DNA of 64,000 bases from Cenococcum geophilum. Its lineage: Eukaryota. The position numbers and the translations under genes are program-made. Within the stretch, counting starts at the first letter, position 1. Every line of letters starts with the position of its first letter. The stretch is taken from positions 4,526,001 to 4,590,000 of the forward strand of contig CP158635.1 of the NCBI GenBank assembly GCA_050273025.1, written 5' to 3'. The notes below the pieces were generated by a model that was given only the letters and a program-made list of their open reading frames with translations, was not told the DNA's origin and searched no databases. Of the stretch, positions 14,361-50,327 are shown one piece after another.

Positions 14361-14505
14361 TGGACTGGGTCTTATTTTCAATGTAGATCTAGTAATCTTC
14401 GATAATTTTATAATTTAGATTTATAAAATACTTTTATTTAATTTATAGGCTGTTCTAATTTCTAGTTATATATGGATAAAGATCTAGTATATCTTTAAAG
14501 GCCGG

Positions 14506-18310: not shown

Positions 18311-18624
18311 CGGGTCCCCGCTATATTCCCGATAGCCTCTACACGTGCCTCTGCCAAGTGTACCCCTTATCTATATACCTAGGTAGCCACCTTATTTTTT
18401 ACCCTTCCTTCCTTACATCCTCCCTACCTAGGGAGGCACCAGAACGGCAGCCAGCTGAGGACCGTCGCCAGAACCAGACGACCGTCGACCGTCGCCAGAG
18501 CCAGACGACCACCGTTCGAATATACAGCCAGCGAACGGCCGTAGAGAACGATTCGAATTAATACGATTAATCGATCAATCAAATCAGGCGGAGCCTTCGA
18601 TCGGGCCGACCTTTCCCCCAAATT

Positions 18625-27300: not shown

Positions 27301-28480
27301 CCATACTTGCAGTATACTAAGGGGTAGTTATAGTAAACCTCCTAGACCATATCTAAGTAAATAAATCCTTTTATACATCTAAGGTCCGCCTTTAGGTTGC
27401 TAAAGAGATCCCTAGCTAAGTAAATATTAATATTATAAAGTGCTGTAATATATAAGGACGAGTAATAGAGAAAGATAATAACGGCAATATAGAAGATAAA
27501 TAGGAGTTTAAGAAAATCCTTAATGTATATAACGAAGACCCCTAGGGCCTAACTTATAAGATTAAATAGAAATTGTTCGTACTAACTTAATAGCACGAGT
27601 GAGTCGTATCCCGGGGCACGAAATACGTGTAGTATCGTATGCTCTTTAGGATGGTGGTGACTGTCTCTTGTATTGAAGCGGACTACGTGGTCTATATACT
27701 GATGCGTCCTTCCCCCCTAATTAGTTAGTGCTTATGCACCAGACGCGTAAGCGGGTGGTTGGTGCGCCAAACGCGTACCGAACGCGTAGGCACGCGGTTG
27801 GTATGATAGGTGCTGTAATTATATAGAAATATTATAAGGATATAACTTAGCAGCTAAAGGAAAACCTAAAGGGTTGTAAATAAGCTATATAGCGCTTTTA
27901 TAAGCAATACCTTAAGAAGCTAGGACCCCTAGATTAGGTATAAGATAAGAAAAAGTTACGCTAAGGTCGTGGCCGACTACCGTATTAAAATTTGTGGTAG
28001 TTAAGATGTTATAGAACTTTAACTAGCGGTTAAAGTTATCTAATTAGCCAAATTCTCGCTAAGAAACGCCACGCGGATTAATTTAGGTGGTGGTATAGAG
28101 TTCTGCTAACCTTACTTACTAAACTAACTAATTAGGATTTTCTATGCCTAGTATAGAAAATCACTATTAGCTTAGTTAAGGGCGGTAAGCAGAATTAATA
28201 TCTTTGCGGTAAAAAATAGGCAACCCTATATACTGCCTATTTTTAAGTTATCTATTTAGTTTAGGGACTAAACTATTTAGGGGAGAGGAGTATTATTACG
28301 GCACTAACCTAACGTATACTATTTTATACTATCTTATACTATTTCCTACTATTAGCTAGCCCACTACTAGCAACTTAGCGGCCGGCCCTACTATTTATAT
28401 ATAATACCCCCTTTCTACCTTCTTCCCCTCTTTATACTATAACGTAGTTATTTAGTCTACTTTATTATAGCACTGCAATA
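21310..28480 (+). mobile_element. full-length Ty3/gypsy chromovirus LTR retrotransposon (RIP-inactivated)
   Basis: 187-bp LTRs 21310-21496 and 28294-28480, 5-bp TSD CCCTT, PPT aggggagaggag before the 3' LTR. Gag from ~21686, protease LVDSG ~23360, RT ~24650-25330 (RIP'd YLDD ~25150), RNase H VVETD ~25590, integrase ~26300-27050, chromodomain ~27490-27910. Confidence 0.92.
27574..27825. mobile_element. solo LTR inserted into the chromodomain coding sequence
   Basis: 252 bp, tgttcg...atata (RIP'd TG..CA), 5-bp TSD GAAAT. Removing it restores the chromodomain frame, Y.IK(W)K..KD.T(W)Q..E with RIP stops at the Trp codons. More GC-rich than the host. Confidence 0.8.
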
Positions 28481-29639: not shown

Positions 29640-32600
29640 TATAATATAGTATTGGTGCCCTTTAGGCTTAGTGCCTCCAGGCGGAATAAACTTTATTATT
29701 ATTATTATCTAAAGTACCTAAATAAGTGGATAAAGTACTAGTATAGTAAAGACGATAAGCTACTAGAAAAATTTAAGGATAAGAACGCCCTATAGGAGTA
29801 ATATAGATATATAAAGCCTAAGGATAGGCTTTACTAAAGGGGGGGGGGGTAATATTGTGGTGGGGTAAAATGGGCCACTACTTAGTGCCTTAGCATTTTC
29901 CTGTATATATTAAGCCTTCGGCTTCTCTCCTTCTCTTAACCATGACCTACCAGAATACATTCTTTCCTTTCTTCTTACTAACTGCTTTCCTATTAATTGA
30001 TTATGACTAATGACTGACCGACCGACCGACCGACAGACAGATAGATAGCATTGTGACTTCCTATCTGAGAGGGACCGCGTCTACCACTATATATGGCATT
30101 CCACGTGGGGATGACGGCAAGCTCTTTGGATTAGAAGTCTGGCATTTTATATATAACTATATATATAGGAGGTACGCAAGAATATACTATAACTATAGAA
30201 GAACCGCTAGCTGCAGAAGAACCGCTAGCCAGACAGATAAGATAGTAGAAGTAGAGAATTATAGTATCGGATAGTAAGGGGAACCAGGTAGTCCCGGAAA
30301 AGACAGGATAGCTAGACTCAACGCACAGGCTAAAGAGAGGCAAAAAGGGGTAGTAAAGGTCTCGGAAAGTTACGTGTAAGGATATTAAGCGAACTAGTGA
30401 GCTAATTAGACAACGTTAACCGGCGGTTAGAGTTACCTAATATTTCTACTACCCGCGCACAGATATAGCTAGAGCTTTATTGAAGATATAGAGATAATAA
30501 GCTAAGGGCTAATTAATTAGAAGGAAATAAGATCTAAGGTATCTAGCGGTAGAGGAAGTTAGCGCTGCCCTTTAAGAACAAAGGACGTAATATTAAGTAA
30601 GGTTATAAGTATACGAGATTGGATTTATCCTTAAAAGCTTTCTATTCTAACTTAGCTTTATCTTTTTTTAAGTTATCCGGATTATGTTAGCGGCGGCTAT
30701 AGAGGCGTTCTATAAAGAAGTAGATATAGGTAGAAGTATAAGGCTTAGTAGCACCCTACCGCGCGGAGTAACAATAGGCTAAAACAGACGGACATATCGA
30801 GACCCAGTAGTAGTAGAAGATGGCGATTCTATACTCTCCTAGGAAGACTAACCTCTAGGCGTTAAGAAGTAGCTAAAAGGAATTAAAGCCTATACCTCTT
30901 TTACTAAGTATAAACTAATACTAGGATAGCCGTCTAGGATATAATTACCTTAGGCGGCAATGTAAGCAGACCTACTATAGTATTTACCTGTAATACCTAG
31001 GACTGATAGCCCTTAGTAGATAAAGGATAAGAACCGTAAGGACCACCTATAAGCTCCTAAGGAAGCTCTAGGTGCGCCCTATAGCTAGTAGTTAACGACT
31101 TAAAATAGGATCTACGTTATAACCTAGCCTATGCCAGCCCTAGGAACTGTTAGATCTCCGTACTTTATAGGATAAGACATATTATAATTTATTAAGCAGT
31201 ATGAAAGACTATGCGCCCGATATTACGTTACGAGCAAGGAAAAGCACTAGGGTTTTCTGGAATACTGCGATTACTAAATAGGAATGTGGATCCGAAGTCT
31301 GCCTAAATTTATAGCCGGTAATTGGACGGAGCTTATAAGGAAGCTTAGGGCAGAATACTAAGGAAGTAACCGCTTTCGTAAAATAGAGACGGTAGAATTC
31401 TTAGAGGCCTACGTACTATAGTATAGGAGCAGCCCACCTAGCGTGCGTAAGTACTGTAGGCAGTTTACACTAATCTCCTAAAAGGCTACTAAAGTAGGCA
31501 ACCTAGAGAACGGTTAGCAAGGATACTGGTTTATAAAAGGACTTCCGCTTAAATATTAAAGATACGCTATAGCTAAAACGGGAGCTAATCTAGATAGACA
31601 AAAGTCCTTTAACTTCTATTAGTTACTAAGAGCTATAAAAGACAGACTTAGTTTAGATAAGGGCGCAGATTATTTATTAAAAATGGACTCTAAGGACTAG
31701 AGCCTTCGTTAGCTAGTTAAGCAGTTCTATAATTAGCAGCTAGCCATAAGCAAAGATACTACTATTTAACCACCTACAATCTTTTAGCCAAGTAAGACAG
31801 CTAACGCCCGTTAAGCCAATTAGGAAACGGGCCTAGAACTTAAGGAGCTTAACCGCTAAAGGAAAGGAAGACGTTAGGACCTAGCTAGGCTAGGTATATA
31901 TAGAGGAGCCCTAACGCGGTAGCAGTTACCCACTACAGATTAGGAAATGGACGAAATGGTAGGGCAGCTAAGGAGTCTAAAATTGACTAAGACGGAGCTT
32001 ACGGCAGCTGCACGGTTAATGCCGTTCCTTAATTAAATACAAAAGGACCTAAAGAAGCTTATAACGCATTTGAATTAAGCCGCAGCTTAAGGCCTAGCAT
32101 AAGGATATGGCCTAGTACTAGGATATAAAGACTGGCAAAACAGCACCTGAGCTCCCTTTGCTCCGCAAGACTTTTAATATCCGCACGATTTTTAATATCT
32201 GTAAGACTGTCGACCTTTATAAAGCTCTTAATATCCACAAGATTCTACTACCTTTAAACGGCCGCAGTAGGACGTACGGGGTCAGTAAGGCACGTAAGGA
32301 CAAGGCCGATGGACCTATTTTAGATATAGAGGAAGTTACTATTTTACTAAGTACGAATGCTAAGGGCTAAAGGATCTTATTTAGTAAGGATTTATATATC
32401 TATCTAATTAAGGAAGACTAGTAGCTAGAACGCGCAAACGACCTAGACCTAAACTTCTATGGCTTAGCAATAAAGGATAATTAAAGGGTATTAAGAACTG
32501 GCTTTATATATACTAAGGAATAGACCTAGATAGACAGGTATATTAGAAAATAGAAGGATAAGGATAGATATAGAAATAGGCCCCTATAGGATAAATAGAT

Positions 32601-35600
32601 TTTACTACTTTCTATAACGGAGTAGTGCTAAAAAATAGTGATAAAACACGTATAAACTAGGAGGACTACTATTAAGTATAACCCATAGACTTAGTAGTAA
32701 CACCTAGCCAGCAATATCCGCAGACCCTTAGAGATAACCGTATAATTAGGATAGCTATTAAGCCGTAGGCTCTGCAGTAAGTGGCGTAGGCTCCGCCATA
32801 AGAGAAGTATATACGACTAGGAGATTACATCCAGATTGGGTTATAGTCTATAGATAAGACAGCTAAAGCTAAGAAGAAGAATAAATTATCTAATCCTTAG
32901 AGACGGTCTTAAAGATAGATGCTTGACCAGTAGGCTTTATAGTAGGCTCTATAGTAGGTGTAGAATATTTAACTAGGGGACAGTTAAGTTCTAAGGTGGG
33001 GGAGGGGATATAAGTAACAGCCGTATAAAAGATTTCTATTTTATCTACTTAGTTATAATATTTCCTAAAGCTCCTTTTCTTATTTATTTTCTTAATTATA
33101 ATATATTAAGACGTATTAGTCGCGATAACCTACTACAGAGATATTAGCTCAGCTTACCGCCTATTACTAAGCTAATAGCGATTTTCTATACCCGGTGCGG
33201 AAAATCCTAATTGGCCTATTTAGCAGTAAAAGACGGTAGAATTCTATACCGCCCCTGAAATTCAATGATGCAGTTGCGCGATAAGAATGATACCGAGAGC
33301 CTTAATTGATTGCACAGATATAGAGCCGATTATACGATGTAGAGCTAGATGTAGAGCTGCACGTAGAGCCTTAATCGATTAATAGCACGGAAGCCTTAAT
33401 TAAATCGAGTGACTATATAGAAGCCCCGACTGGTTAAGGAATCGAATCAAGCCAGAGCCTTAATATCAGCATATCGCCGTCACTAAATCAAATCAGTCAA
33501 ATGTCGTTAAATTAGAGCCTTCGTCCAGGCCGACGTTATTCCTTAATTAAACGACAGCTGATTATAGCACGACTGTTACTGCTATCCGAATTTAGTACTG
33601 CGCCAGCTGCACGACAAGGACGGATACTGCAGTAAGGAAGGGACCTATATAAAGGTAATAGCACGATATTAGTAACAAAGCACTGCGGAAATGGTAGAAT
33701 AGTATACAAAGATGCTCTGCAAGAGATTATATATAGGGTATAGCTAACTACAATAAACCTAAGCTATCCTTATACGACTAAAGACAGAACTAAGCTATAT
33801 TTAGCTAAGCTAGTAAAGGACCTTATTAAGGATTATAAGGGAAATAGGAATTAGACGTACAGAAGCTAGCGCTTTTCCTTAGAGGTTGTTTTAACGAAGG
33901 ACTGTATTATAGATATAAGAGTAAAGGATATGCGATAGAGGTAGTTATAATAGCCGAGAAGCTGCTACTAGATGGTTTTAAAGGACGACCTAGATAAAGC
34001 GCGGAGTTAGTAGGATAATAATAAAGAGAATGGAAGTAGAAGATAGTCCCTAGAAGGCTCTTAAGCTAAAAGAAGATTAAGGATATATAAGCGTACTGCT
34101 AGTAGTGAGGGTAAAGAAGCAGCTGTAAAGGCCTAAGATGCGCCAAGGAAGCTAAGTATAAAGACGGCCTAAAAAGAGAAGGAAGTAGCTATTAAGGACG
34201 TCCTAGAAAAGCACTAGGCCTATTATAGTGGTTTAGAGAAAGCTACCGTTAGTGCTTATAAAGGAGGAAGTCTTAAGACAGGTCTCTAGATTGGATATTT
34301 AGAGAATACCAAAAGCCTTAATTATATAATGCGGAGCCTTAATTAATTATATAGATATAGAGCTTTAACCGAATAACTATACAGCTAGAGTCTTAATTGA
34401 TTGCCTATAAATGCAAAGCCTATAGATATAGAGCCTAGGTTATACATATAGTAGAAGACGCCTTAAGTTAAGCCAGAGCCTCTATTAAATCCTAATTAGT
34501 TAAACGCTGCCTCTATAGTTAAGTCGTTAAATTAGAGCCTTCGGTCGGGCCGACCTAATACCCTATTTAAACGTTAGATAATTATACGCTATCGCAGCCA
34601 AATTAAGTTAGTTACCCGTCGCCAGCCAACCAGACATTTTTAACCGCTAGTAAAAGATACCAGATATTAGCGTAGGCAGCAGAGTAGGCTTAATTAGGAA
34701 ACTAGTATATAGCTAATAAAATATTAGAAACACGGCTAATTAACGTCTTAGAGCCTCTGCAAGAGCCTCTCCCTTTAACCCCTTAATTAATTAATTGCCG
34801 CACGTCTTAACGCCTATAGATTTATACTAGAACGATCTTTCCTATAAATATAGATACGGAGCTTTACCTAAAGTCTTACACGGAGTTATATATAGAGTTA
34901 TACACGGAGTTATATACAGAGTCTACGGATATAGAGCATATGGGTATAGAGCCTTAATTAGACAGCAGTACGGCAGCTTAACTAAACGCCTATATATACA
35001 AAGCCTTAATTAAACAATAAATGCGGAGTATTAACCGACCGTACGTCTACACGGAAGTTTTAATTAATTGCCTATAGATATAGAGCCTTAGTTATATATA
35101 CAGTAAAAGACACCTTAAGTCAAGCTAGGGCCTCATTAAATCTTAATTAGTTAAACGCTGTCTCCGCATTTAAGTTATAGTTAGAGCCTTTAACCGGGCC
35201 GACTTCCTACCTTAATCGAATAACCAAACGATTAGTTGCACGTCGTCGCCGACTAATTAGATGGTCTTTATCCGGCAATTAAAGCAGGCATACAGACACG
35301 TATAGACACTATGCCTATATAGGAAACCAGTACACGGTTAATAGATCGTTAAAAGCATTACTAGTCGATATTTTAGAACTACAGATGTAAATACGGACGT
35401 AGAATATACAATACAGAGCTACTAATATATAGCCAGATATACTACCCAACGCACAGTTAGACTTATAGTTAGACGCATAGTCAGCTGCAGAGCTATACGG
35501 ACGTAAAGCTTAATAATATAGGGCCTAATACAACGCCACGGATAGAGCCTTAATTGAGAGCCGTATATAATATAGACCGATGCAGAGCTAGGTACAGAGC

Positions 35601-36993
35601 CTTGATATTAAACGACTAGCCGAACCATCGAGTCGGGCCGTAGTCTCTGCCATTTTAATTGACTGGCCTGCCGTCGCCGCTGCTGCTGCCGCTATTCCGT
35701 TTGGCTATTTTATCCCTACCGTCTTGACTAACTGCTCTGTCTCTACCGTTCTAAATCTATACCACTGCTAGATCTATCTTACTACTAGATCTGCTGGATC
35801 TACTAGACTAACCAACCTGTTCCGTTCTGCTGTTTCCGCCGACCGCTATTCCAACCAACCGCCGCCGACCAACTGTTCTACTACTACTGCTACTGCTACT
35901 GCTACTGTTACTATTACTGCTATTCTAACTAGCTATTCTACTACTGCTGTTCCACCGTTCTGTTCCACCAATTTAACTATTTTACCGCTACTATTCTAAC
36001 TAACTGCCGCCGACCAGCTGCTACTGACTAACTGCTACCGACCGACTGCTACTGACCGTCCTACTACTAAGTGTTCTGCTATTAAAAGTTCTGCTGCTAG
36101 ATATCCTACTGCCTATTACACGGACCGAGCTCTTCTACCAATTGTTCTATTACTGACTGTTCTACCACTAACTGTTTTGCTTTATCTTACCACGCCAACT
36201 GTCTGCTTTTATTACTATTTCTATTACCGTTACTATTACTGCTATTGCTACTATTACTACTATTATTATTGTTTCTAGTTTACTGCTGTCCTAGTTACTA
36301 GGTTAGATCTTAGCTATAAGTAATAAAGGGGCACTGTAGAACAGTTCTATAGGAGAGCTAAGGATAGGGTTATCTGAGTTCTTTTAGGGGTGTGCTTTCC
36401 TTTTTCTATTCTGCTTTTACTTTACTTTTGTTTGGCTATTCTTCTATAGTATAGAACGTTAGGGGACAACGTTCTTAGTGGGGGAGGTATATAGTGGGGT
36501 AAAATGGGCCACTACTTAGTGCCTTGGCATTTTCCTATATATATTAAGCCTTCGGCTTCTCTTCTTCTCTTGACCACGACCTACCAAAATACATTCTTTC
36601 CTTTCTTCTTACTGACTGCTTTCCTACTGATTGATTACAACTAACGACCGACTAACCCACCGACAGACAGATAGACAGCATTGTGACTTCCTATCTAAGA
36701 GGGACCGCGTCCACCACCACAATATTACGGCACTGGTAGAAAATGGCAGAACTTAGTTAGTAGGACTTAGCAGAACTTGGTAAAACTTTATAGTCCTCTA
36801 TACTAGTAAGTTGCTATAAATTGCCGTATATTGCAGTTATGTAACGTAAAGATCTTATAAAATATTAAGCGGCGCTACTCTTCTTCTCCTTTTCTTTCTT
36901 TAGCTTTAGATCCTTGTTTATAGACAATCCAATTATATAGGCTTATGCGTCCCTCTTACTATACCTGTACCTTAATTAACTAAGTCAATAATA
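29640..36993 (+). mobile_element. 3' end of a second family-A LTR element (internal 3' end + PPT to 29855; LTR ~36723-36993), split by the 29856-36721 insertion
   Basis: aaagggggggggggtaatat | atattacggc reconstitutes the PPT-LTR junction seen in reverse at 14960-14985. LTR 36865-36993 matches the reverse complement of 14713-14840. Confidence 0.72.
29856..36721 (+). mobile_element. non-autonomous (gag-only, pol-less) LTR retrotransposon related to the 37071-47711 element
   Basis: LTRs 29856-30091 and 36490-36721 (tgtggtgggg...ccaccaca), 4-bp TSD ATAT, PBS-like tggcattccacgtgggg and PPT gggggagg. Gag remnant (MPA.GT..SPYF.G.D...FI.QYE.LC at ~31130, CCHC-like knuckle ~32310). No RT/IN recognisable; repeat-rich 3' half. 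Confidence 0.85.
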
Positions 36994-37070
36994 TATAATT
37001 GGTGTTCTAGTAGCTTATTGGCTTTCTTTTATAAAAATACCTCTAGGCGTTTATAATACTCTACTAGTAC

Positions 37071-40000
37071 TATGGGAGGGTACGACCTCTCTAAGATAGG
37101 AAAGTCACAGTGCTGTTAGTCAGTCTGTCAGTTAGTCTGTTAGTCGGTCTGTCAGTCGGTCACAATTAGTTAGAATTAAGTAGTAAGAAGAGAAAGAAAA
37201 GAGTGTATTTAAGGAAAGTTGTGTGTCTATTGGTATCGCCTAAGTTGTTAAAGACTCTAAGGGCTCTAGACCGATCTATATAACTTATAAAAGGCCTAGG
37301 CTCTCCCAAAGCTATGCCTAATCTAAATATTAAATTTAGGGGCTAAATTACACTACTATATACCTCCCCTACCTAAGTTGTTGTCCCCTAACAACTTCTA
37401 AAACTCTAAAACTCCTTATCTTTAAAATGAAGACGCGGTAGGTAATCGCATGCGTTCCTTGCCCTTACTACGAACTTAAGATAGTAAACAAGGAGACTCC
37501 GTTCTGGTTGAATGAGACTGTTTTTGTCTACTTGGCTGAGTAGTAAAAGAGACCTTAGACTAGCGGCTTTTAGATAACATAGCTCTTTTACGCCCTTCTA
37601 TTTGCTTAGTTCTGTCCCATAATTCTTTAGGCAACTCTATATAACTCTATCCTTCTACAATAATTAGGGGCACTCTACTTAGATCTACTATAATAGCTAA
37701 AGGATTAATTCTATTATTGATATAGTAGAAGTAAGAGCGGCTATTAAAGCGTTCTATCTTAGTTATACGCATTAGCCTAAATGCATCTTTATAATTCTTA
37801 ACGGCCCTAAGATAGTAGGAATGCATCTATTTCCTAACTTTGTTCCCGTTACTATTAAGAAGAAGGTTATAATCTTAAATTACCGCTAGAGAATCCTATT
37901 ATCGTTTACTAAGAAGGGCGTTAGATAGAGCGCTGGCAGCTATAAGCTTAACTGCTATAGGGAAGCGATATAGAATTATACCGTAGAGATTAGTATATCC
38001 AGATGGCGTACGGGGCGGCGCTCTTAAGTCTTAGTGCGCATCTGCCAACTCTGCCTAAGTACCTCCTTTAGTAACCTTAAGGTTATTATAATTGTCCTAA
38101 ATACTAACGAACTATAGTAGTATTGTTCGCTGGGTTTTAGTTGAAGGTCCTTTCGCTCTATAAGGAAGGTGAGGTATAGTTATACGTATATCTCCTTTCT
38201 TATATGGCTGAGCTACCTAGTTGGTTGTATACTTTTTTATGTCTTTAGTGGTCTAGTTTTAGTTAGAGATCTTATAAACGAATCCGTTACCCTTAGTCGA
38301 TTCTTATGCCTTAAGATCCTCCTACTATAATTCTAGGTGGTGATGCATACCGGGTAGGATAATTATGTAGTTATCCTTAGTCTTATTATCTAGAGAAACG
38401 CTCCCTTAGATTATATTAGTACTGTATCCACTTTTAAGGAGCGAGGGAATATTAACGTTAATATGATGGAAAGCTGTAGAGTCTCCTTTAACCGCGAATT
38501 TCGCATAATAAGGGTAGGAAATGAGTTGCCACTAGCTGTTAGGCCTAAGAGCGTAATAGAGACGATAATACTAAGGGTTTTGTCTTATTAGCTGTTGGTA
38601 GAGACTATAGACCATCGTTCTTAATTAGCTATAATTTAGCCGCCCATTAATTAGACGCTAATGGTGGCGGTATATATGCATTTCCTTATTAATTATTGCT
38701 AAGATACCAGAATCCCACCACCATCTAAATATATTCAAAATTACAGATTCTTCTCGCTGCCACACTTCTTAGTTTTTTAGTGATATTATCCAATTAAGCA
38801 AAGCCTCTCTGTTATATAAAAACCTTAGTACTAAGTTATAAATAAACTTATACGGTTTTAAGGAATTGGATAAAACTAGAGGTCTATAAGCTTTTCTAAA
38901 CTAAGAGTACGTAGTAGGATCGGTTTTTATAGTGCTAAGGTGGTTATAAGCGTGATATATTAAACGGAGTCTGTAATATAGTGCGGTATAGTTTAGACCC
39001 TTTATCGCCAAACCTATACGTCCTCTTATAGCTTGCGTATACATCTAGCAGACCTTATATATCTCTGGATTAGAACCAGCTGCCCTATACCAACTACATA
39101 AGAGCTTTATAACCTTAGTTAGTTTGATTTTAGTGGTTCGGTTTAGGGACGCCTTAAGATAAGCGGGCACGTTATCCTTGTAGTTATACCCTCGTTTTGT
39201 ATAGAGTACCGCTATAGTATCTACAGCCTCCTTAATATACTCCTTATCATCTCCCGGCTTAATAATGTTCTTATTAAACATTAATGCCACCCCTAGCCCT
39301 CCTACTTCTAGGTAAGTAATCGTTAGCCCTCTTCTTAGATTCCTCCTAGACAAAGATACTGGCAGCTATGGGGGTAAGCTAATAGGCGTTCTAGCCGTAA
39401 GAATGCTCTCGTTTATAGATAACAATGGCGAGTTAACTAATATAGGTGATTCTTATTAGGACAGGCTTGGCATAATACTAACGCCTCCTTCTTAAATAGG
39501 TGTTGATAGCTAAAAAGCTAAGGGATTTATTACGTTAGAAGCATGTTATAAATGTGTTTGCAGTATAAAAGCTAAGCTCTTTTCTGCTTATCTAATTTTG
39601 ATATCAGTGACCTCTAGTCCCACGGTAGTTAGTCTCCTACTTCTTGGCGGTAGGTCTTTATTTGGAATAAGGAAACTAGTTAAGTGTCTTCCTAAGCCAT
39701 AATTATTTACCACCTAGTCTAATACCGCCCTTCCTAGCATCTTTAGCGCGAGCGCGAAATCGGTTGGCTATAGTTAAGTAGTGTTCTTAATGCCGCGCCC
39801 TAGATATTCGAGCCTGTTAATTAGGGCCTTATTAACTCGTGCCGTTACTTTATAAAGTGGGTAAATAGTGAGCTTTCGGGCGGTAAAAAGGAAGTGGTAG
39901 GAGACCGCGTGTTTAAGTGGACCGTTAAGAACACCTTATCCTCAGGACTTTCGGATAGTTTCTCTAGCTTTATTATACTAATTTCTTTAATCTTTTGCCA

Positions 40001-43000
40001 TCTTACTAACGTTAGAGATGTCCTTAAAAATTAATAAAAACGTGTCCCTTCTTAAAGATGCTTATAGCCCGTTATCCTGGTTAACGAAATTAACTACTAC
40101 ACTAGCAGCATCTGCGTAGTTTTCTTAAGAGAGTAGAATTTCGTTACAGATTTAGAGGAGCACTACCCGACGCCGATTGACTATAAAGCCTCTGACTTCT
40201 ACAAGGACGTCACTAATCTATTACTTAGCTCCTTTATATAGTACTAAAGGTCTACTAAATAAAGATATAATAAACGTACTATTGTTAATTCTGTTTAATT
40301 TGTGACTTTAACTAATTATAGCTGTGTTTAAGGTTTATTAAGGGTAAAAAGGTAAAGTTCTAAATAGGGTTTCCTAATCTAAATGGTCTACCGAATCTAG
40401 GTAGTGGTATAGAGTTCTACTGGCTCTAATCGTTAAATAGACCAATTATAATTTTCCATCCCTAGGATGGAAAATCACTATTAGCTTAGTAAAGGCGGTA
40501 AGCGGAACTAATATCTTTACAGTGAACAATACTAGATAGTTATACGTAAACATTTTTCTGTCCTTACCTTACTGCCACTACGTATTAGATTCCTATAACT
40601 AAAAAAAGTAAATAAGAAAGCGTAATAGAAAGAGCTTTAGGAAATATAGTAAATAAACGGATGGATTGCACGGCTATTATCTATATCCCCTCCCCTACCT
40701 TAGAACTTAACTGTCCCCTAGTTAAATATTTCGTACTTAGTTCTATCAAACGATCTTTCTAGAACGCGCACTTCTTAAACTACACGGCGTTGCAATACTA
40801 GTGGATTTTATATAACATCCTTCTTAGGTTCTAGCTCTGCTGTTATTTCTTATAGCATAGTTCCGCCTAACTAGTTAAGCTAGTCTTCCTAGTGGACCTT
40901 AAATATCCGTTGTTAATAGAACTTCTTTAATTTATTCCCTGGAGTTTAATCACGGAATGGCATGCCGTTAAGATCCTTAATTAAGTACTATCCTTTATAA
41001 GGGTAACTCTTATATACGCGGAACAGGCTTAGCCATTTTAGATTTAACTTACAACTACTAGAATAGTCTTACTTAAGCTGCGTGTTATAAAGCATAACTA
41101 TATTTCTAACCTTAAATCCGTCCTAGCGAATATGGTAGGTGTTATTAAAGTACTCCTTATTTGCTACTCTTAGTCGTTTTATACGCGTAATAGCCTCTTT
41201 TATATCTGCATCCCTTTAGTCAAACTACTTTACACAAAGTGCTAGTAGCTCTACAGTGGTCCGGACTGTTTGCTAAGGCAGCGTCTACTAAGTGGGTATA
41301 TAGAGTTTAATAGGAAGGATATGCTTATATCCGCATATAACTCTTGCTAGTGTTATTCCTATAAGCCGCTTAATAGTTATCCTATCTGCCTATAAAATAG
41401 TATAAAGATTATCTAGCTATAAGCCATCTATCTTCGCTAAAGTATCTATTATAGGTCTATAGCCTCGCTCTATAAAGCCTTACGCCTAAGCGTAGTAAGT
41501 AAAAGCTATAACCCTCTTAATATTATAGAGCTCTATAAGCGCAGCGGTAACGTTAGTATTCTCTCTTCCACTATCTATAGAGAGCTGTCTGAATGCTCCC
41601 TATTAGTAGATAATATCTTTATAGAGGAACTTCGCTATACTTTTTATATCCTTATTTTAAAGGGCCCAAGCCTCTACCTATCTAGATATATATTCTTAAG
41701 TAATAGCTAGGTACTGGAATCCGAGATAGCTTAAAGGCATAAACGTAATATCCACTACTACTTATTACTATAAGGTGGACTCCTATATAGGGTATATTAC
41801 TTCTTCTTCCTATCCCGGCTATTGCTCCTAGTATTATAGACACAACTTAATATGCTATGATATCTAATCCCATAGCCCTAGCCACCAATATTAATTTAAG
41901 ACCCTCTAATATATTCCCTTTTGTCCGTAATATCCGCTTTAATTATAAAGGCTTTTAATAATCTCCTACTAAGCGTCCTTATTATTAACTACCCTTTATA
42001 TTAGTATATTTTTCAACTACTGGCGAAAGAGCTGTTAATTACGCACTAGGAACTTTAGCGTATATCGTTTAAACTTTTTAAACTCTTTAGTATTTATCTC
42101 TTCCGGACGTTATAAGGTTACTAGCCACTTTGTAATCTTTTAAGATTTCTCTAAATATAAGTCTTTTAATGGTAGACCCGCTTCCATTTTAAGAGGGGCA
42201 GCTATATATTTTAAGGCACTTAGTTTATAGTTAATAAACTCTTTAATATCCTTAGTTAGCTTATTAGGTTGTTTACCATTAGGTAGTCGTCACAAAAGTC
42301 CATTAGCTAGGCTATTCTTCTTCCCCGGCATATATCTGATATTAAAGTCCTATAGCTAGATCCATGCTAGCTATCTTGTTATTAAGGCTCCGGGTAAATT
42401 AGTGGCGGCATAATTTAATTATGCGACTAGGGTATTTGCGTCCGTCTCTACTATAAAGTGAACACCGTATAGGTATACGCGACACTTCTTTAATATATAT
42501 ACTAATGCCCGATATTTAAGCTTTCCTAAGTTATATTTCTGCTCCGCCTAAGACTAGATGCCGCTTTTATATTAACACAGGTAATAATAACCTTGCACGT
42601 CTAGTTGTATAAGGCCGCACCCCTATCTATTCTTACATCTATTAACGGCGAGAATAATTAGCCTAGCCCCTTTACTATAATCTAGCTAAACTAATACGGG
42701 TGTAGTAGTGACTATATACTTTAGAGTCTTTATAGCGGCTATCTGCTCTATACCCTATACAAACAGAACGTTCACTTATAGTAGTCGGAAGATTGGCTCT
42801 GCCTTAATTATAAAGTCTTCTACCTATATTTAGTAATATACGACAACTCCTAAGAACGCTTAGGCCGATGTAACGTCTTTATAGTCTTTCTAGTAAATGA
42901 TCTTTACGACCTTTAACTCTTCCGGATATTATCCTTTTCTATTATAGCGGTAACCAACCACTATAATCTCGTCTTTATAGAAATGAGACTTTGCGCCTAA

Positions 43001-46000
43001 GATCGTATACCTAGCTCATTCCAAATCTATAAGCACCCCGTCTAGCTATATAATATATTCCAGAATGTATCTACATACACCTAAAAGGCTCTCCTCCCTA
43101 TTATATACTGTCTGTGGGCCTTTTACTATAATATTATCTAGAAATGGCAGGGCATGGTGTGGGATGTGTCATTCTAAGATCTTAGTAATCATCCGCACGA
43201 ACTAGGCTACGGAATTTATGCCTCCCATAGGTACCGTCATTTATTATAGAAGTCCCAAAGGTGTTGCAAAAGCCGTTAGGTTCCGGCTTTCTACATTTAG
43301 CTCCAATTAGTTATAGCCCAAAAAGAAGTCCACTAGAGACATAACCTTATACCCCATAAACTCCTTGGAAAATTCATTAGCATATAGCGGCAGATTTGCG
43401 TCCCTAACAGTTACTCGGTTAATATTTATTGCCGCGTTAATTAATTGGTACTTATTGCGTTCCTTCTTACTTATAAGAAACCATAGATTCCTATATAGGC
43501 TTTTGCAATATTCTAGAGTCCCTTAAGCTAGTCATTCTCGTAACATATTTATTACTTCTCCTCATAGGGCCCTAGGTACTAGAAAGTTCGGTACTTACTA
43601 TACTTCATACGGCACGGTTTTAATCTTCAGTAGTAGAGTTACGTCTTTGCTGACGCGACCTATCTTAGAGAACTCCTATACTAGAGCCTCTTCTTGGTTA
43701 AACAACATGGCCTTAAGGATCTCTCGTTCTCTTAGCTAAATATCTCCTATAATTATGCGCTCTAATTATTCTGGCTTTAGTTGTACACCGCAGGCTAGCT
43801 TAGTGTATTGCGGCTTAAGAAAATAATTATATAGTTTAAGAGGCAATCCTTAGATGGACGCCTTCTGTTAACGTAAGGCCACCTCTTGCTATTTCACTAT
43901 ACCTCCTATAACTGTTCCATCTAGTGCTAATAAATTAACTAGGTGGACCTTATCTGCCTTCCGTTTATATACGGTTGCTATATTTATGGCACTTAGTTAG
44001 GCCTTACTCCGGCAGCTTTTTATTTACATTATAAATAGATCCGTTGTCTTTAACATTTAATATATAAGGGATTTAGCTTTTGCTTTAAATACTAGCTTCC
44101 AATTCTTTCTTAAGTATTTCTTTAGGACTTTCTTTAACGTTTTACTGTCAAGCTCTCTCTATCTAATATTATGCTCCTCTCCCTACCAATGGCTCTGTTT
44201 AGCGGATATCTAAAACGGTATACGTCCGTGTTGGAGCCATACCTTATTTCCCTTCTCTTTATTCTTAATATCCTCCTTATCCTAATGCGCTGGGTTATAA
44301 GTAACCCCGGATACAATCCTAGTGGTTATACTAGCTATACATTTCCTAAACTGTTTTCCATACTAATACCTTTATCTAGTTTAAAGAACATCGCATCTTT
44401 ATAGGACGTTAAGAACCTTATTTCGACTCTGCTATCTTCTAATTAAATAATATAAGATACCTAACCTGTTGCGGTTTGTTTTGTTACTAGTCTAGCCCTT
44501 ACTAACTATAGCTTACTAAGTATTACCTTATATGACATTTCCCCTACAGCAATAAACGTTATAGATATTAAGACGTTACCTATCACTATAGGGACTGTAT
44601 ATACTAGCCCAATGAACTTAGACTAAGTTCCATTTGTAGATGTTAGACGCGCGCCTTGTAACTATAAAGGCAGACTTAATATTAGTAGGCTATGTCGTAG
44701 GGCTACGCTTTCCTTAATTAGGTTAAGCTCAGCTCTAGAGTTAATTAGGCATTTAGCCCTTCCGTCTCCTATCTGCGCTTCTACCTTTAGGTATTACCTT
44801 TAAAACCGGACAAATCCTACTTCTTGTTCGATCTGGTCTACTTCGGTAGTTATTAGGCCGGCTTAATTAGTATAGAACGTTAGGTGTGCTAATAACACGG
44901 ATGCCTTAACGTCCTCCTACTTCTATTAGTAAGGCTCCGTAAGGGGTAGCGAGAGAGGCTTAAAGAATAGCCTTATAACTTTAGGTATATACACAAGACA
45001 GTCACCAATAATAACTTTAATGGTTTTTGACAAGATCTTATCCGCCATTACAGTTAGGCTTAGGACGTTTCCTTTTAGTATGTCTATTATCCTAACTGGC
45101 TTTAGTTATAATGCTTTAACTATCGTTATTATATCCACTATTTGCTCCGTCTGTCCTAGCTATTCGGTGTAATTTATTTTATTACCCCTATTACTGCTTA
45201 ACGGTAGTAGAGGAGCCTACTGCTAGGGCTATAGTGCAATTTAGATATGTCCTCCTAATTATATATTTTAAACCGTTGCTAGTCGCGGACCAGATGGTTT
45301 TAGAGGCTGTTTTGTTACCCTTACTTCCCCTTACGGTCTCCTAAGATTATATACCCACGGCGTAGGCTATAACTAGGTTGCGGCCCCTACCGAATTAATG
45401 TATATCGACTCTACTTGGTATATATCTTCCCAGGACTTACCAAGTTCCTCTTTGCTTTTAGCGTCACTACCCTCTATAAGCTCTACGGAAGTTGCCTTTA
45501 GTTAGACACCTGTCGCTAGCGTATTAGGATTAATATTCGCGTTCTACCTTAGCTAGTCTTTAAGGAACTAAATCTAATTGTCGCTCGGTAAATACGGAAT
45601 TGTATTTCCTAGGCGCTTACGTATTTTAGCGTATATTTGGTTGTTTTTGTTTATATATAGGAAACCATAATAAACTAACTCTTTAAGCTCTGGACACTGA
45701 TTAATAAAATGATAGGCACCCCCGCATCCATAATACGTCTGATTTTGTGTCTAGTATGCGCTAAAGTTCCTTAGCCCTCTATACCTTCCTAGGCCCGGCT
45801 TATATTATTCTTATAGCGCTCCCTTATAGGGCGGCTGCGGTTTATTGTTACCTAGTGCCGGTTATAGGTCCATTTATTCTTAACGCATTAACGCCCTATT
45901 TAGGAGCTATATGTACCATATTAGATCTTAGCAAATCCTATCTAGAAACGGCATTAAAGATATAACGCCTGCTAATTTAACCGTCCTAAGATTAAGCTTC

Positions 46001-47711
46001 CGGAGTTAATTAGTAAGTTTCTCTAGTTTGGGGTCTGTTTCCTAAGTTGTTTAACGGGTATTTGCTAACTTGCTTGGCTAAGAGACTATAGGTAGTTAAA
46101 GGGCAGTATCTCTTTGGTTTATTATAGCTGGTTGCTAATTATGGAATTGTTTAACTAGCTAATAAAGGCCTTATTCCTTAGGATTTATTATTAATAACTA
46201 ATTAGCGCCTTTATGTGAATTAAGCCTGTCTTCTACAGCTCTCCTCAGCAGGTGGAAGTTAAAAGACTCTTGCCTATTAGGGTCGGCTTCTGTTTTAGTT
46301 ATTATATATCTTTAGTATTTAAATAGGAGTCCTCTTGCGAACTAGTACCCTTATTTACGGTTTTCTAAATTACCAGCCTTAGTAACCTTTTGGGAGATTA
46401 ACGTGAACTGCCTATAGTATTCGCGTATACTGCTAGGTGGAGTATTCCTATACTGCAGTATATAAGCTTTTAAGAATTCTACCGTTTTAACTTATTAAAA
46501 ATAGTTACTTCCTTAGTAGTCTGTCCTAAGCTTTCCTATAAGTTCCATCTAGTTACTAATAGCAAACTTAGGCAGATTTCTAATCTATGTCCCTATCTAA
46601 TAGTCGTAATACTCTGGAAGTCCTTAATACTTTTTGTTATCTATAATACAGTGCTAGATACATAGCCGCTTATACTGCTTAATAAATTGCAACACGTTTT
46701 ATCCCGTAAAGTAAGGGGTCCTAGGGGTTCCCAGAGCCGGCATAGGCTGGGCTATAATATATACCTTATCTCGTTCTATTAGTAGTCTAGTAGAAGGTAG
46801 CGGACCTATAGTTTTTTTAGGGACAGGCAGGTGGACCTTGTAACCCCTATCCTCTGTCTGTTAAGGGTTATCGGTCCCTAACATTATAGGAGTTAGGGTT
46901 GGTATCGCATGCCCTAGTTTAGGAGAGCTTCGCGGTTTAATAGGCTGCTTACTTTCCTCTCCCTTTTTAGCGCCCTTACCGTTATTATAGAATAGGCCTA
47001 ATATTCCTAATAATCCCTTTACTAGTACTATCGCCATTATTATAAATTTAAAGGTAGCTCCGATAAATACGAGAATAATAGTATAGACTGTTGTAAATAT
47101 AGTAAATAAAATGTAAAAGATTTTTCTCTGCCGTTCCTGGTGTGCCATAGTTCTTCCTTTTATCCTTTGTCTTACTATGCTATATACCCACCTTTTTATT
47201 ACTGCTTGCCGACCACTATTCCCGTATAGAAAACTCAGCAAGTGTCGTCGGTTTATTCTTTGTAGTGGTGGCTGCGCATAGGTCGCTAATATGCCCGTGC
47301 TTCTTAGTCTTAGTCATTCTATCACAGTTTTAGATCGTTCCTATGCGTCTCCTGTATATAGAGCACCAGACTTTTAATCTAAAGAGCTTGCTGTCGTCCT
47401 TATATGGAATGCTATAAAATATATAGGAGGGTACGACCTCTCTAAGATAGGAAAGTCACAGTGCTGTTAGTTAGTCTGTTAGTTAGTCTGTCGGTCAGTC
47501 TGTCGGTCGGTTACAATTAGTCAGAATTAAGCAGTAAGAAGAGAAAGAAAAGAGTGTATTTAAGGAAAGTTGTGTGTCTATTGGTGTTGCCTAAGTTATT
47601 AAAGACTCTAAGGGCTCTAGACCGATCTATATAACTTGTGGAAGGCCTAGGCTCTCCCGAAGCTATGCCTAATCTAGATGTTAAATCTAGGGGCCAAATT
47701 ACACCACCACA
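37071..47711 (-). mobile_element. full-length 10.6-kb Ylt1-like Ty3/gypsy LTR retrotransposon with an extra ORF
   Basis: 290-bp LTRs 47422-47711 (5') and 37071-37360 (3'), 4-bp TSD GTAC, PPT aggggagg. Gag (~47150-45000, CxxCxxxxHxxxxC-like ~45720), protease CLI(D)SGAELN ~44740, RT with PMGG.NSV and LPFL(DD)I.VKGP ~43130, RNase H ~42650, integrase ~41950-41300; pol ends ~40740. Confidence 0.92.
37422..40319 (-). pseudogene. retrotransposon ORF3, putative PhyH-like 2OG-Fe(II) dioxygenase-fold protein (RIP-damaged, ~966 codons)
   Basis: One continuous reading frame with no frameshift; stops fall at plausible Gln/Trp/Arg positions. Contains LISYPYYAKFAVKGDSTAFHHI(D)VNIP..I(Q)GSVSLD..IILPGMHHHL..KKGD.RIT.PHLP(HG)AKGPST..RT.L(PW)FV. 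Start inferred from RIP'd ATG>ATA at 40319. Confidence 0.72.
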
Positions 47712-47715
47712 GTAC

Positions 47716-50327
47716 CTTTATAGTAGGGTTAATATACTTTTTTAGTACTAAGACTTTCTTAATATCGGCTATTATAACAGCAAAGATTGTATATTTAGGT
47801 CTTTTAGCAAGTTAAGCTAGTAGGGTAGCTTTAATTATGCAGATATTTAGGGCGTTAAGCTTACTTAGGTTATCTATAGTTTCGTATATAGTTTTTTTAT
47901 TTAGCTTTAGGTTTAGTATTAGGTACGGAGTTAGTATTAGATTTAGATTTAGGTTCTTTAAGTATACTCTTTATAGTAGAGTATTAGTCTTTCTAGTATA
48001 TTTATATAGTAAGCTTAAGCTTTTACTTAATATGGAGTGATATAGTTCTTAGGGTCTATTTATAGGGATTAGTAGAACTTTTAGATCCTTAATAGATATT
48101 GGTAGAAGTCTTATATTAGTGGAATTTAGTAGAATTCTTAGGCTAGTAGAATTAGGTAGACTTCTTAAGTATAGGGTAGATCTTAATAGATTTTTAGATT
48201 TTAGTTTTAGGTCTAAGTAGTAAGTTATAAGGCACTTTTGCTTATAACGGAAGGCGGTAAATAGAAGCTTAAGGTTGTCTTAATTAACAGTTACCTTATA
48301 TAGCTTTATTTAAAGTTATTTAAGAATTACTAAGTAACTTAGGGTAGTAATAAAAAGCCTAATTAGTTCTTTATAGTTTAGGTATTAGAGTCTTAGGTAT
48401 ACTACGTAAGTAATTTAGCCTAAGACTACGCGTTTACTATTAAATCTAAATATATTAATATGCTGGTTAAGAGGGGTTAGGGTAAAACTATTATCTTATA
48501 TAAAGATCTTATTAATAAATTCTATGCTACTAGCTCCTATATTAATTAGAACTTAAGTATTAGCCTATTAATTTTTCTGCTAAAAATAATAGTTAACGGT
48601 TATACTATAATCCTAAGAGTTAGAGTTTATAATATCTAAAGTATTTAATAAGATCCTAAGGTAGAGCCGTCCTAGAGAGTAACTTAGCTTTAAAACTTTC
48701 CTTTTAGAGGCGATTAGGGCGGAGTTCTTATAGCGTATTAGTTATAGCTTCGTCCTTATAAGTGGTGCTTATTAAATAACACGCTAGAGCTGGATAATAA
48801 TTAGGATTAGTAGATAGGGCTTAGTTAAGGCGATTAGTTACTTATACTAGTTGTCTCTTTTATATATTTAAAACAATAGAACACTCCTATACTAGTTGTT
48901 TATATATATATATTTAGGGTAGTAGGATAGAGCAATAGCTTAAGATATAAGCATTGCTTCCGCATTTAAAATAAAGGCCGTATTTAATACGTTATTTATA
49001 TTTAGTAGATCCTTTTAGGGTACAAGAGAGGGTTCTAGCGTTAATATCTATGGCGTCTAGGTTCTTACGAGTCCTAGGCGGCTAAGGGGTAAAGTATTAA
49101 GGTATATGTTTTAGAGCGAGGCGTAGTATATTATTATATAAGCTATTAATAATATTAGCGTAGGTAGTAACAGTTTCTAGTAGTATAACTCCTATAGGGG
49201 ATGCTTTTAATTTAGTGTTTAAAGATTCTATTAGGCGGTTAATTAAGGTAGATTTATTCTATTTAGTTTCTTTAATATAGTAATAAAACTTAGCGAAGTA
49301 TAACGGGAAGCTCTTAGAGCCCTATGCTATCCTATTTAGTTTCCTTTATATAGTAGCAGTTTAGTTAGGGTCGCTATAAGAGGCTTCTAGTATAGCAACT
49401 AGCTCTTTTATAGTATTTAGTTAAAATAGGTATATAGTTTTTATATCGCCTTTTATTAAGTAGCTTATAGTATAATATAACTAGCTATTAAAAGTAGGGT
49501 AGTGATTAATATTACCGTTTAGCTTGTTCTTAAGTTAGTTAAAGAAGGAACATAGTTTACTCCTTTTACCTAAATAGGCGGGAGGATTAGGGAGACGTTT
49601 AGTTAGCTTTTTTTACTAGGCCACTAGTTAGTAAATTTAGGGTTAAGGAGCTAGTTTTAGATATATTTCTTCTATCTAGTACTTATAGGTTAATACTAGT
49701 GGAAATAGGTGGGGGCGACAGTATAGTAAACGGTGGGTTATAGTAGATCTCTTTAATTTCCTTTCTTAAGGATCTAATTATCTCTTAGCGTTAAGCCTTT
49801 TATTATATAAGAGCGTCTATAAAGGCCTATTATAGGCCCTTTATTTATTTAGTAAACATATTATATAAGTCAGTTATAGATATAGGGGCTTTTAAGTTGT
49901 TCTATATATTAGACGGAGTAAGGTAGTATAGGTTTAATATAATATAGTATTACAGCGTAAGTATAAGCGGCGATAATATATAGCGGAGTAGATACTATTA
50001 AGCTATATATATAAACTATATAATAAAGTTAAAATATTATATAAGAAAAGAAGGTAGGAAAATGGGAAGAAAGGGTATATATTATAGACTTAGTTGCTTA
50101 GTTAATATATATATAAAGCAGAATAGGATTTAGGTGGTAGTCCTAGTAGAACTTAGTAAGATTTAGTAGAACTTAGTAAAACTTAGTAGAATATAGTAGA
50201 TTGCGGTAGATTGCCATTAGATTGCCGTAGATTGCTATTAGATTGCCTTCTTATATTCGGTCTCTAGTTGCTAAGTTAGTAGAAATAGGTAGATATATAT
50301 AAGGTTTTACGAGAGTATCCCATAACA
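47716..50327 (-). mobile_element. truncated gypsy-type element: 5' LTR (ends 50327), gag and protease
   Basis: LTR terminus tgttatggga on the minus strand. Gag RLPNPPAY.GKRS.L.SFFNQL.NKL.GN ~49590, protease VLI(D)(T)GASS ~48545. No RT visible. It hosts the 37071-47711 insertion. Confidence 0.65.

Follow-up and report, generated by a model that had tools for sequence, protein, structure and literature searches.

A stretch of 64,000 nucleotides from the fungus Cenococcum geophilum (assembly GCA_050273025.1, contig CP158635.1, positions 4,526,001 to 4,590,000; here called the window) carries on its minus strand a 10.6-kb long terminal repeat (LTR) retrotransposon of the Ty3/gypsy type, in which gag and protease (gag-PR) are followed by reverse transcriptase, RNase H and integrase (RT-RH-IN, or pol) and then by a third open reading frame (ORF), ORF3. 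This last region is probably a gene of the PhyH superfamily of oxygenases that was taken up by the element, has been kept by selection and serves the element. The copy in the window is a relic of repeat-induced point mutation (RIP), which has inactivated the start codon and three of the four positions in the catalytic motifs and has turned 46 sense codons into stops. Like the env gene of retroviruses and errantiviruses, ORF3 is positioned between the integrase and the polypurine tract and 3' LTR; unlike env, which encodes a fusion glycoprotein, it has the predicted fold of a soluble enzyme. LTR retrotransposons seldom fix extra enzymes. The presence of a PhyH-type oxygenase in the env position of a fungal gypsy element is apparently undescribed, although transposon- and virus-borne 2-oxoglutarate (2OG) oxygenases as such are known.

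A sequence-only reading of the window had noticed a single long sense frame between the end of pol and the polypurine tract and 3' LTR. This frame is indeed present, and its limits can be refined to 40268-37416, with pol ending at about 40721. Its parts, positioned with the help of an intact sister element (L007) found in metagenome contigs and of the homologous protein P0002, are listed below.

37416..40268, minus strand: ORF3, 950 codons plus stop, a dead PhyH-type oxygenase gene, delimited by the frame, the homologues, the L007 alignment and the mutation spectrum.
39624..40268, minus strand: N-terminal helical domain, about residues 1-215, with an approximate boundary taken from an AlphaFold2 (AF2) model of the L007 counterpart.
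39039..39188, minus strand: Cys/His motif CxC...CxxH, whose last pair reads C-x-x-Y in the window (CAC to TAT).
37893..38810, minus strand: predicted double-stranded beta-helix (DSBH) catalytic core, the approximate counterpart of P0002 residues 440-745, defined by VIA-align and Foldseek and mapped by motif offset.
38457..38465, minus strand: H-x-D metal-binding motif, H-I-N here (GAC to AAC), with H619 at 38465-38463.
38157..38162, minus strand: distal His-Gly, Y-R here (CAT to TAT and GGG to AGA).
38127..38132, minus strand: R-R, 10-11 residues past the distal His, Q-R here (CGA to CAG) and R-R in L007.

The decay of this gene can be read in detail. RIP signatures extend across the window from about 14 to 64 kb (TA/AT 1.5-2.1, (CA+TG)/(AC+GT) 0.23-0.81, GC 30-40%), and the first 14 kb are non-RIP DNA with a GC content of about 0.5. 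The minus-strand frame 37422-40319 contains 46 stops in 966 codons (23 TAA, 22 TAG and 1 TGA); the other five frames contain 72-123. Alignment of window ORF3 with the ORF3 of L007 gives 66.5% amino acid identity over 951 positions (tblastn, 40271-37419), and at the DNA level the frame and L007 8638-11595 are 76.9% identical over 2898 nt, with 670 differences. In the direction from intact to window, 530 of these are G>A or C>T, and 266 of the 530 occur at TpG/CpA. All 46 window stops correspond to sense codons of L007 (TGG, CAA, CAG, CGA or CGG) that have been changed solely by C>T or G>A, and stops coincide with positions at which the family has W (473, 565, 665, 736, 808) or Q (638). No indel separates the window from L007 within ORF3, and the indels between pol and the LTR are confined to the region upstream of the ORF3 start. 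Thus the proposal of the sequence-only reading that the stops reflect transition damage without frameshifts is upheld. The start codon has been changed from ATG to ATA (40268-40266), and the original stop is the TAA at 37418-37416. The same reading had reconstructed an Asp and a distal His from the window letters, and the positions it gave for them hold: at position 621 (38459-38457) the window has AAC (N) and L007 has GAC (D), and at position 720 (38162-38160) the window has TAT (Y) and L007 has CAT (H).

Despite this damage, the translation still finds its relatives. An exhaustive phmmer search with X-masked window ORF3 against 1.84 billion representatives yielded 931 proteins at E<=1e-3, of which 527 reach E<=1e-10 and 170 reach E<=1e-30; the top match has an E of 6.8e-105 and is 35% identical across residues 422-867 of the query. 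When the 150 listed hits were aligned to the query (160 rows), the motifs named in the sequence-only reading proved to be the most conserved columns. H619 is conserved in 136/147 aligned homologues (H in the window), D621 in 143/148 (N), H720 in 136/145 (Y), G721 in 134/145 (R), R730 in 136/145 or 94% (Q), and R731 in 125/145 or 86% (R); overall, the metal-binding triad is conserved in 93-97% of the 145-148 aligned homologues. The spacing, in which H-x-D is followed after ~99 residues by H and then by R-R at +10/+11, fits the PhyH layout, and the R-R pair is a candidate ligand of the C5-carboxylate of 2OG. The same pattern of conservation appears when 80 or 19 homologues are aligned with MAFFT, and these alignments also reveal the CxC...CxxH motif upstream of the catalytic domain. 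C320, C322, C359 and H362 of P0002 are at least 90% conserved among the 80 homologues, while window position 424 is C in 70/70 and position 427 is H in 68/69 homologues; this motif is a putative structural zinc site.

Named members of the family come from Rhinocladiella, Venustampulla, Coccidioides, Sclerotinia, Penicillium, Onygenales, Chaetothyriales and lichen fungi (Pezizomycotina), and are annotated as hypothetical throughout, except for one with a 'PhyH' label from the Joint Genome Institute (JGI). Several members lie on megabase chromosomal contigs of named fungi. Since 8/8 distinct full-length matches in metagenome loci are single uninterrupted ORFs, family members appear to be intronless, and they occur in multiple copies; these are not ordinary intron-containing host genes of which a single copy was captured. 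The ORF3 of the element has the full family architecture of N-domain, linker, Cys/His motif and catalytic domain. Comparison of the ORF3 region with the rest of the window by blastn and tblastx revealed no second copy of ORF3. Prokaryote genomes and IMG/VR were scanned by pattern, an approach of limited sensitivity; this gave 30 and 43 matches, respectively, none of which was confirmed by tblastn. A homologue search with the whole of protein P0152 returned itself alone; its residues 560-800 did retrieve relatives.

The assignment of the ORF3 product to the PhyH-like DSBH Fe(II)/2OG oxygenases, as the sequence-only reading had suggested, is supported by conserved residues, by partial profile matches and by a predicted structure. 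PhyH (PF05721) is the sole recurrent Pfam match among the homologues. It was matched by 2/13 at E<=0.01, both under the cut-off, and in a larger set by 27/52 at E<=0.1, with 8/52 above the gathering score of 22 bits (22.5-36.1 bits). The X-masked window ORF3 itself matched 0 Pfam families at E<=10. Among 71 scanned proteins there was no match to the DUF1479 profile (E<=0.01-1) and none to a Pfam nucleic-acid-oxygenase family (TET/JBP, AlkB). Against PDB sequences, phmmer with window ORF3 gave at best a chance match (E 0.4), a profile of 80 homologues gave no catalytic-domain match, and P0035 alone likewise gave none. By sequence profile the membership of the element subfamily in PhyH is marginal; at the level of the modelled fold the relationship is clear.

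The AF2 model of P0002, built from the 80-sequence alignment, has a mean predicted local distance difference test score (pLDDT) of 85.8 and consists of a helical N-domain (31-236), a disordered linker (237-316) and a C-domain (317-820) with pLDDT mostly >95. Foldseek against the PDB returned 147 matches at E<=1e-3; those listed are without exception oxygenases of the 2OG/PhyH type, including DUF1479/YbiU, GriE, SnoN/K, EctD, FtmOx1 and proline hydroxylases. When the model was compared by VIA-align with 48,161 representative chains, the matches spanned residues 440-745. The top match was YbiU (4rgk, annotated as phytanoyl-CoA dioxygenase family; Z 20.9, rmsd 3.1, 274 aligned), followed by Candida Gig2 (6akz, DUF1479; Z 20.5, rmsd 3.5, 279 aligned) and then by a tier of small-molecule PhyH-type enzymes at Z 13-16, among them human PhyH (2a1x, Z 13.8). 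ORF3 would thus have in common with these proteins the DSBH fold and the way in which H-x-D, the distal His and the Arg are arranged; it differs from them in having only 10-13% sequence identity, in being 2-3 times larger and retrotransposon-encoded, and in its extra N-terminal domain, linker, Cys/His motif and C-terminal helices. A missing triad or a missing DSBH would have spoken against this class of enzyme; the triad is found in the homologues and the DSBH in the P0002 model. The N-domain, modelled from the L007 sequence (pLDDT 83.2), has no recognised fold in Foldseek (best E 1.2), VIA-align (best Z 4.8, generic helical hairpins) or the ESM Atlas (none usable), and neither Foldseek nor VIA-align recognised a DNA- or RNA-binding fold in it; the lack of matches does not in itself make the fold new.

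Insight into the role of ORF3 in the element comes from intact relatives. JGI metagenome contigs, scanned with the family alignment, contain 80 family loci, and in 10 of them (L007, L008, L030, L037, L045, L052, L053, L060, L061 and L073) a pol of the same family lies directly upstream on the same strand. The LTR spacing is 10282-10373 in L037, L053, L060 and L061, and 10351 in the window. L007 and L008 are not RIP-mutated (GC 0.50-0.51, TA/AT 0.77). Each has three long open ORFs, encoding in L007 a gag-PR of 1059 aa and an RT-RH-IN of 1214 aa, and in both an ORF3 of 950 aa, counted from the ATG. The window and L007 can be aligned from one end to the other, through gag, pol and ORF3. Within L007 and within L008 the LTR pair is 100% identical, and the flanks and 4-bp target-site duplications (TSDs) of the two elements differ; they are therefore independent, apparently young insertions.

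Between these two elements, which have diverged at synonymous sites (dS) by 0.33-0.6, the ratio of non-synonymous to synonymous substitution (dN/dS, Nei-Gojobori) is 0.083 for ORF3 (dS 0.33, dN 0.028), 0.086 for RT-RH-IN and 0.197 for gag-PR. ORF3 is under purifying selection as strong as that on pol along transposing lineages. The L007 protein belongs to a 90%-identity cluster with 17 members, five of them full-length (949-1013 aa; 92.7-99.9% identical; from contigs as long as 111 kb), and FRHID, PHLPHG and RRT are retained in 5/5 full-length versions.

Contigs from RNA libraries are compatible with, and no proof of, transcription of the full-length element including ORF3. A metatranscriptome contig of 7988 nt (X2), ~93% identical to L007, runs from pol through ORF3 and across the LTR junction. 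Material from the same study (X5) tiles the same pol-ORF3-LTR span, and a 2267-nt contig from another study (X3), whose RNA nature is a guess, covers L007 8191-10459. Stretches of L007 that no contig of the RNA runs covers do not count as a sign that transcripts are missing. A spliced subgenomic ORF3 mRNA was considered and rejected, because the one skip, from 8345 to 8492 with the ends GC..TC, and the loose ends between 8289 and 8581 all resemble copy variants; positions 8287-8288 of L007 are CA, not AG.

The loci also bear on how the gene came to be associated with gypsy elements. Upstream sequence of at least 4 kb is available for 26 loci, of which 9 have a full pol of the same family, 3 have just a C-terminal integrase remnant close upstream, 1 has a pol fragment and 13 have no pol; the remnant trio (L016, L017, L024) is one sequence in three assemblies, and the pol fragment (L022) lies 7.4 kb away. 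Two loci with a shorter upstream stretch add to these. L046 represents a different gypsy lineage, with a single 2168-aa gag-pol that includes a chromodomain, 46% identity in pol, and a family member after pol. In L069, the end of an integrase lies 600 nt upstream of a family member. A maximum-likelihood tree (119 rows and 490 columns; quick LG+G4) was computed from the catalytic region, leaving out the row of the L016 paralogue because of its low coverage. The window family is a clade there, with 100% support and a long stem, nested in a larger group whose members have an unknown or non-pol context. L046 branches elsewhere, as sister to P0219/P0040 (100%), and L016 occupies a third place. If all gypsy-linked rows are made a single clade, the log-likelihood (lnL) falls by 155.7 units, with a p of 0.00065 in the approximately unbiased (AU) test, in which the group was set by genomic context and chosen after the tree was seen, RIP-degraded rows had skewed composition and the tree search was quick. 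This comparison of sequences argues for an association of the oxygenase family with gypsy elements more than once. The claim of the sequence-only reading that the gene is a component of the element is supported by the intact copies, by purifying selection and by a second gypsy lineage (L046) with a family member.

In the favoured explanation, a full-length intronless gene from a Pezizomycotina family of ~900-aa proteins, either cellular or belonging to another transposable element (TE), would have been taken up by a gypsy element between the integrase and the polypurine tract, and purifying selection equal to that on pol would have maintained it after uptake. It is the strength of this selection, as great as that on pol, which argues that the gene serves the element. 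The intact protein would have a helical N-domain, a disordered linker, a Cys/His motif that probably binds zinc, and an oxygenase domain with an H-x-D...H triad and an Arg pair. Such an enzyme would use Fe(II), 2OG and O2 to hydroxylate or demethylate a substrate important for replication of the element or for its escape from host control. Because of the large non-catalytic domains and the precedents of the orchid gypsy AlkB and the TET/JBP of fungal DNA transposons, the target could, as a tentative guess, be macromolecular (a protein or a nucleic-acid or chromatin mark) rather than a small metabolite.

The precedents differ from ORF3 in informative ways. Ty3/gypsy elements of Phalaenopsis orchids carry an AlkB ORF with m6A (N6-methyladenosine) demethylase activity in vitro (PMC9289625). 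Like the element described here, they are Ty3/gypsy elements with an added 2OG/Fe(II) oxygenase ORF from the cellular gene pool; unlike it, they are 25-kb giants in a plant host and their enzyme is of the AlkB superfamily, whereas here the host range is Pezizomycotina-type fungi, the enzyme is PhyH/DUF1479-like and the element is 10.6 kb long. A second paper describes TET/JBP dioxygenases carried by the fungal DNA transposons KDZ, Plavaka, EnSpm, hAT and Helitron (PMC12730594). There too 2OG oxygenases have been captured repeatedly and non-sister copies occur in several TE lineages; the carriers, however, are DNA transposons, in contrast to the LTR retrotransposon found here, and TET acts on 5-methylcytosine (5mC). 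Structurally, the ORF3 family enzyme is nearer to YbiU (Z 20.9) than to NgTET1 (Z 8.8). A search confined to open-access and bioRxiv full text turned up no account of fungal LTR retrotransposons with a PhyH-type oxygenase, and term look-ups in a survey of fungal LTR elements (PMC3248453) and in a genome paper on TEs and RIP (PMC12910237) gave none either. In the same literature, no function assigned to YbiU or DUF1479 was found. The known AlkB, TET and JBP cases suggest a conflict between host and transposon over nucleic-acid marks; the oxygenase found here comes from another branch of the 2OG enzymes, is tied to several gypsy contexts of more than one lineage and is selected as strongly as reverse transcriptase and integrase. 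Its substrate, if found, would expose an uncharted host-TE interaction and provide a function for a fungal family of >900 sequence clusters, and the intact, apparently young copies (L007, whose ORF3 protein is P0153, and L008) permit direct testing.

Several points weigh against this explanation. The element's own intact ORF3 versions score 14.4-18.1 bits with PhyH, below the cut-off of 22, and the C-domain model is that of a homologue, P0002, which is ~60% identical to the element protein in the core. The roles of the metal and 2OG ligands are assigned from motifs, and would follow those of the superfamily. The nearest structures, YbiU and Gig2/DUF1479, are without known function and the next tier acts on small molecules, while enzymes that act on nucleic acids or their kin are more distant (NgTET1, Z 8.8, 171 aligned, rmsd 3.4; ALKBH3, Z 8.5; ALKBH6, Z 8.5). 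The selection estimate derives from one element pair only. RNA libraries may hold DNA, their contigs carry neither strand nor level, and they contain no canonical splice joint for a subgenomic ORF3 mRNA. There is no pol upstream in 13/26 informative loci, and most family members may be ordinary cellular genes. Finally, the window copy and 8/10 of the same-family copies are RIP-degraded (the eight with TA/AT 1.5-1.7 and no ORF of at least 200 aa save one short one in L030), and ORF3 therefore confers no lasting protection from RIP.

The alternative that fares best overlaps the favoured explanation and differs from it in origin alone. It holds that the ~900-aa family is itself mobile cargo, passed among classes of TE (gypsy, Helitron, Plavaka and others), and not a host family that was captured once, and we regard it as possible although on the unlikely side. 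The separate positions of the window family, L046 and L016 in the tree and the cost of joining them are as this account predicts, as are the clustering of three paralogues within 22.7 kb in L016 and the uninterrupted ORFs of all eight full-length matches. Family members also have DNA-transposon neighbours: in L033 and L036 the member adjoins a Helitron RepHel gene, a Plavaka transposase is 3.7 kb away in L059, DDE transposases are present in L033, L036 and L059, a hAT domain is present in L031 and Tc5/DDE_1 is present in L036. However, TE neighbours are expected by chance in TE-rich fungal metagenome contigs, and the groups of the AU test were named after the tree was made. Other members have ordinary, housekeeping neighbours, namely Hid1, transketolase and NACHT-WD40 in L041, Snf7 in L027 and SNF2 in L013. 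In addition, the idea that the L033/L036 oxygenase gene is the cargo of one Helitron unit was tried and rejected: the Helitron is 95.7% identical between the two loci and the gene merely 84.5%, so the two moved separately. A bolder version, in which the family is recurrent transposon cargo, taken up by gypsy elements at least two to three times and perhaps by Helitron and Plavaka, and encodes an anti-silencing enzyme that acts on a macromolecular mark, seems unlikely; if true, it would make the family the retrotransposon-side fungal counterpart of the TET/JBP genes of DNA transposons and would offer a first way into the function of the orphan YbiU/Gig2-like 2OG oxygenases.

It is doubtful that the oxygenase oxidises or demethylates 5mC, N6-methyladenine in DNA (6mA) or m6A, or methylated histones and so counters methylation- or RIP-linked silencing. 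The sequence-only reading had proposed this role, and the precedents of TE- and virus-borne 2OG oxygenases, as given in PMC9289625 and PMC12730594, the Cys/His motif and large extra domains beside the core, and the strong selection are all in keeping with it. On the other side stand the fold, which is nearest to YbiU/Gig2 and small-molecule PhyH-type enzymes (Z 14-21) as opposed to the TET and AlkB folds (Z 8.5-8.8), the lack of a nucleic-acid-oxygenase Pfam match in the 71 homologues scanned, and the N-domain, in which no DNA- or RNA-binding fold was recognised. The demethylase role gains no direct support, and a nucleic-acid substrate is conceivable only in so far as the TET and AlkB enzymes have the DSBH core in common with the ORF3 family. 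As to a counter-defence against RIP, the degraded copies attest that the enzyme does not prevent it.

That ORF3 is a passenger, a transduced cellular gene without a role in the life cycle of the element, is highly improbable. The 13 informative loci without pol upstream and the members annotated as hypothetical proteins on megabase chromosomal contigs might be taken to favour it. A neutral insert of 2.9 kb would, however, be expected to decay or vanish; instead, the dN/dS of ORF3 equals that of pol between independently inserted elements, the catalytic motifs are intact in all five full-length versions, and the family is linked to at least two further gypsy integrase contexts. The weakest alternative, that the frame arose by chance as a stretch with few stops in AT-rich, RIP-mutated DNA or that it is an unrelated insertion nested there, could appeal to the missing Pfam match in the window translation and to a count of stops not far below the random AT-rich expectation, but is refuted by the 931 homologues and by the indel-free colinear alignment to an intact 950-codon ORF at the same position in sister elements.

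The remainder of the element, whose identity as a Ty3/gypsy LTR retrotransposon is confirmed, has the following parts.

47712..47715, minus strand: TSD GTAC, 5' side, with flank ...GGTAC/TGTGG; the same GTAC lies beyond the 3' LTR.
47422..47711, minus strand: 5' LTR, TGTGG...CC(T)ATA, from the repeat pair; it aligns to the L008 LTRs.
44338..47506, minus strand: gag-protease region, RIP-degraded, from tblastn with L007 ORF1 (residues 1-83 and 86-1059, 58-66% identity).
40721..44362, minus strand: pol (RT, RNase H, integrase), RIP-degraded, from tblastn with L007 ORF2 (residues 1-1214, 67.5% identity).
40269..40720, minus strand: pol-ORF3 spacer, where the sole small indels relative to L007 are located.
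37361..37390, minus strand: polypurine tract region, which reads ...GGGGACAACAACTTAGGTAGGGGAGGTA/TATAGTAG adjoining the 3' LTR and aligns with the L008 tract.
37071..37360, minus strand: 3' LTR, from the repeat pair and the L008 alignment.
37067..37070, minus strand: TSD GTAC, 3' side, with flank ...CCCATA/GTACTAG.

The LTRs were recognised as a pair of direct repeats (37071-37365 and 47422-47717) with 91.6% identity over 296 nt, in which the mismatches are exclusively transitions; the LTR itself is 290 nt long. Its 3' terminus is ...CCACA in intact relatives (L008) and ...C(C/T)ATA in the window, and the TSD is GTAC in the window and CTAC in L008. The element has the paired LTRs of a gypsy element, with TG..CA ends in intact L008, together with a TSD and a polypurine tract before the 3' LTR. 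Its domain order is PR-RT-RNase H-IN with the integrase last, as seen by Pfam in L007, with which the window is colinear: ORF1 of L007 contains Asp_protease_2, and ORF2 contains RVT_1 (332-472), RT_RNaseH (569-669), Integrase_H2C2 (794-849) and rve (866-958). In the window itself, the X-masked minus-strand translation upstream of the ORF3 frame matches RT_RNaseH and Integrase_H2C2. Near their 3' part (about 37100-37170 and 47450-47520) the LTRs contain a short-period (GACC/GACT/GACA)n-like run, of which the L008 LTRs have a shorter version.

Within the element family, variation seems to be greatest in the pol-ORF3 spacer. In L007 8289-8581, contigs from RNA libraries of two or three studies break, with loose ends at 8289, 8492, 8527, 8574 and 8581, and one RNA-library variant skips 146 nt in the spacer. 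In the window, the spacer and the 3' end of pol (40384-40730) resemble 32964-33250, 28080-28218 and 52724-52826 over 100-340 nt with 67-79% identity and in differing orientations; this stretch may be a module common to several elements.

Some of the metagenome loci have further features of their own. The ends of the L046 contig (1-167 and 10054-10220) overlap by 167 nt at 99% identity, giving a unit of 10053 nt, and ORF3 is divided between the two ends; this contig may represent a multi-copy element that was assembled as a circle, or else an element with one additional LTR. L016 (1-22685; also L017 and L024) contains its three oxygenase paralogues at 4998-8129 (plus), 9824-12781 (plus) and 21474-22685 (minus), with the gypsy integrase C-terminal remnant at 8648-9524 between the first two and a JmjC-domain ORF fragment at 18525-19106. 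A large upstream ORF in L016 had been considered as a partner gene and proved to be one of these paralogues, and an all-against-all comparison of ORFs from the non-gypsy loci revealed no conserved partner gene. The RepHel genes of L033 (7468-11283) and L036 (12456-16279) begin right past the 3' end of the oxygenase paralogues, in convergent orientation, an adjacency that could reflect a target preference of Helitrons or coincidence. In L038, a DUF6589 protein (13072-14580, E 1.5e-60) lies just downstream of the family member, and in L012 an ORF with an rva_4 integrase core (6563-7666) lies 2 kb upstream; these neighbours may be further mobile-element contexts.

Within the window, three more LTR pairs surround the focal element (21309-28480, 29860-36678 and 52260-59071), with LTRs of 188-286 nt, 90-93% identity and spacings of 6984, 6634 and 6587, respectively, so that the region resembles a cluster of RIP-degraded retrotransposons. 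The LTRs of 29860-36678 are ~71% similar to the focal LTRs in the opposite orientation, and a gag-like similarity of 38% at the amino acid level is present at 30987-32540; this element has no pol or ORF3 match to L007 at E<=1e-4. A tandem repeat array with a 12-nt period extends for ~500 nt (17727-18223) near the border between the non-RIP and the RIP-degraded DNA.

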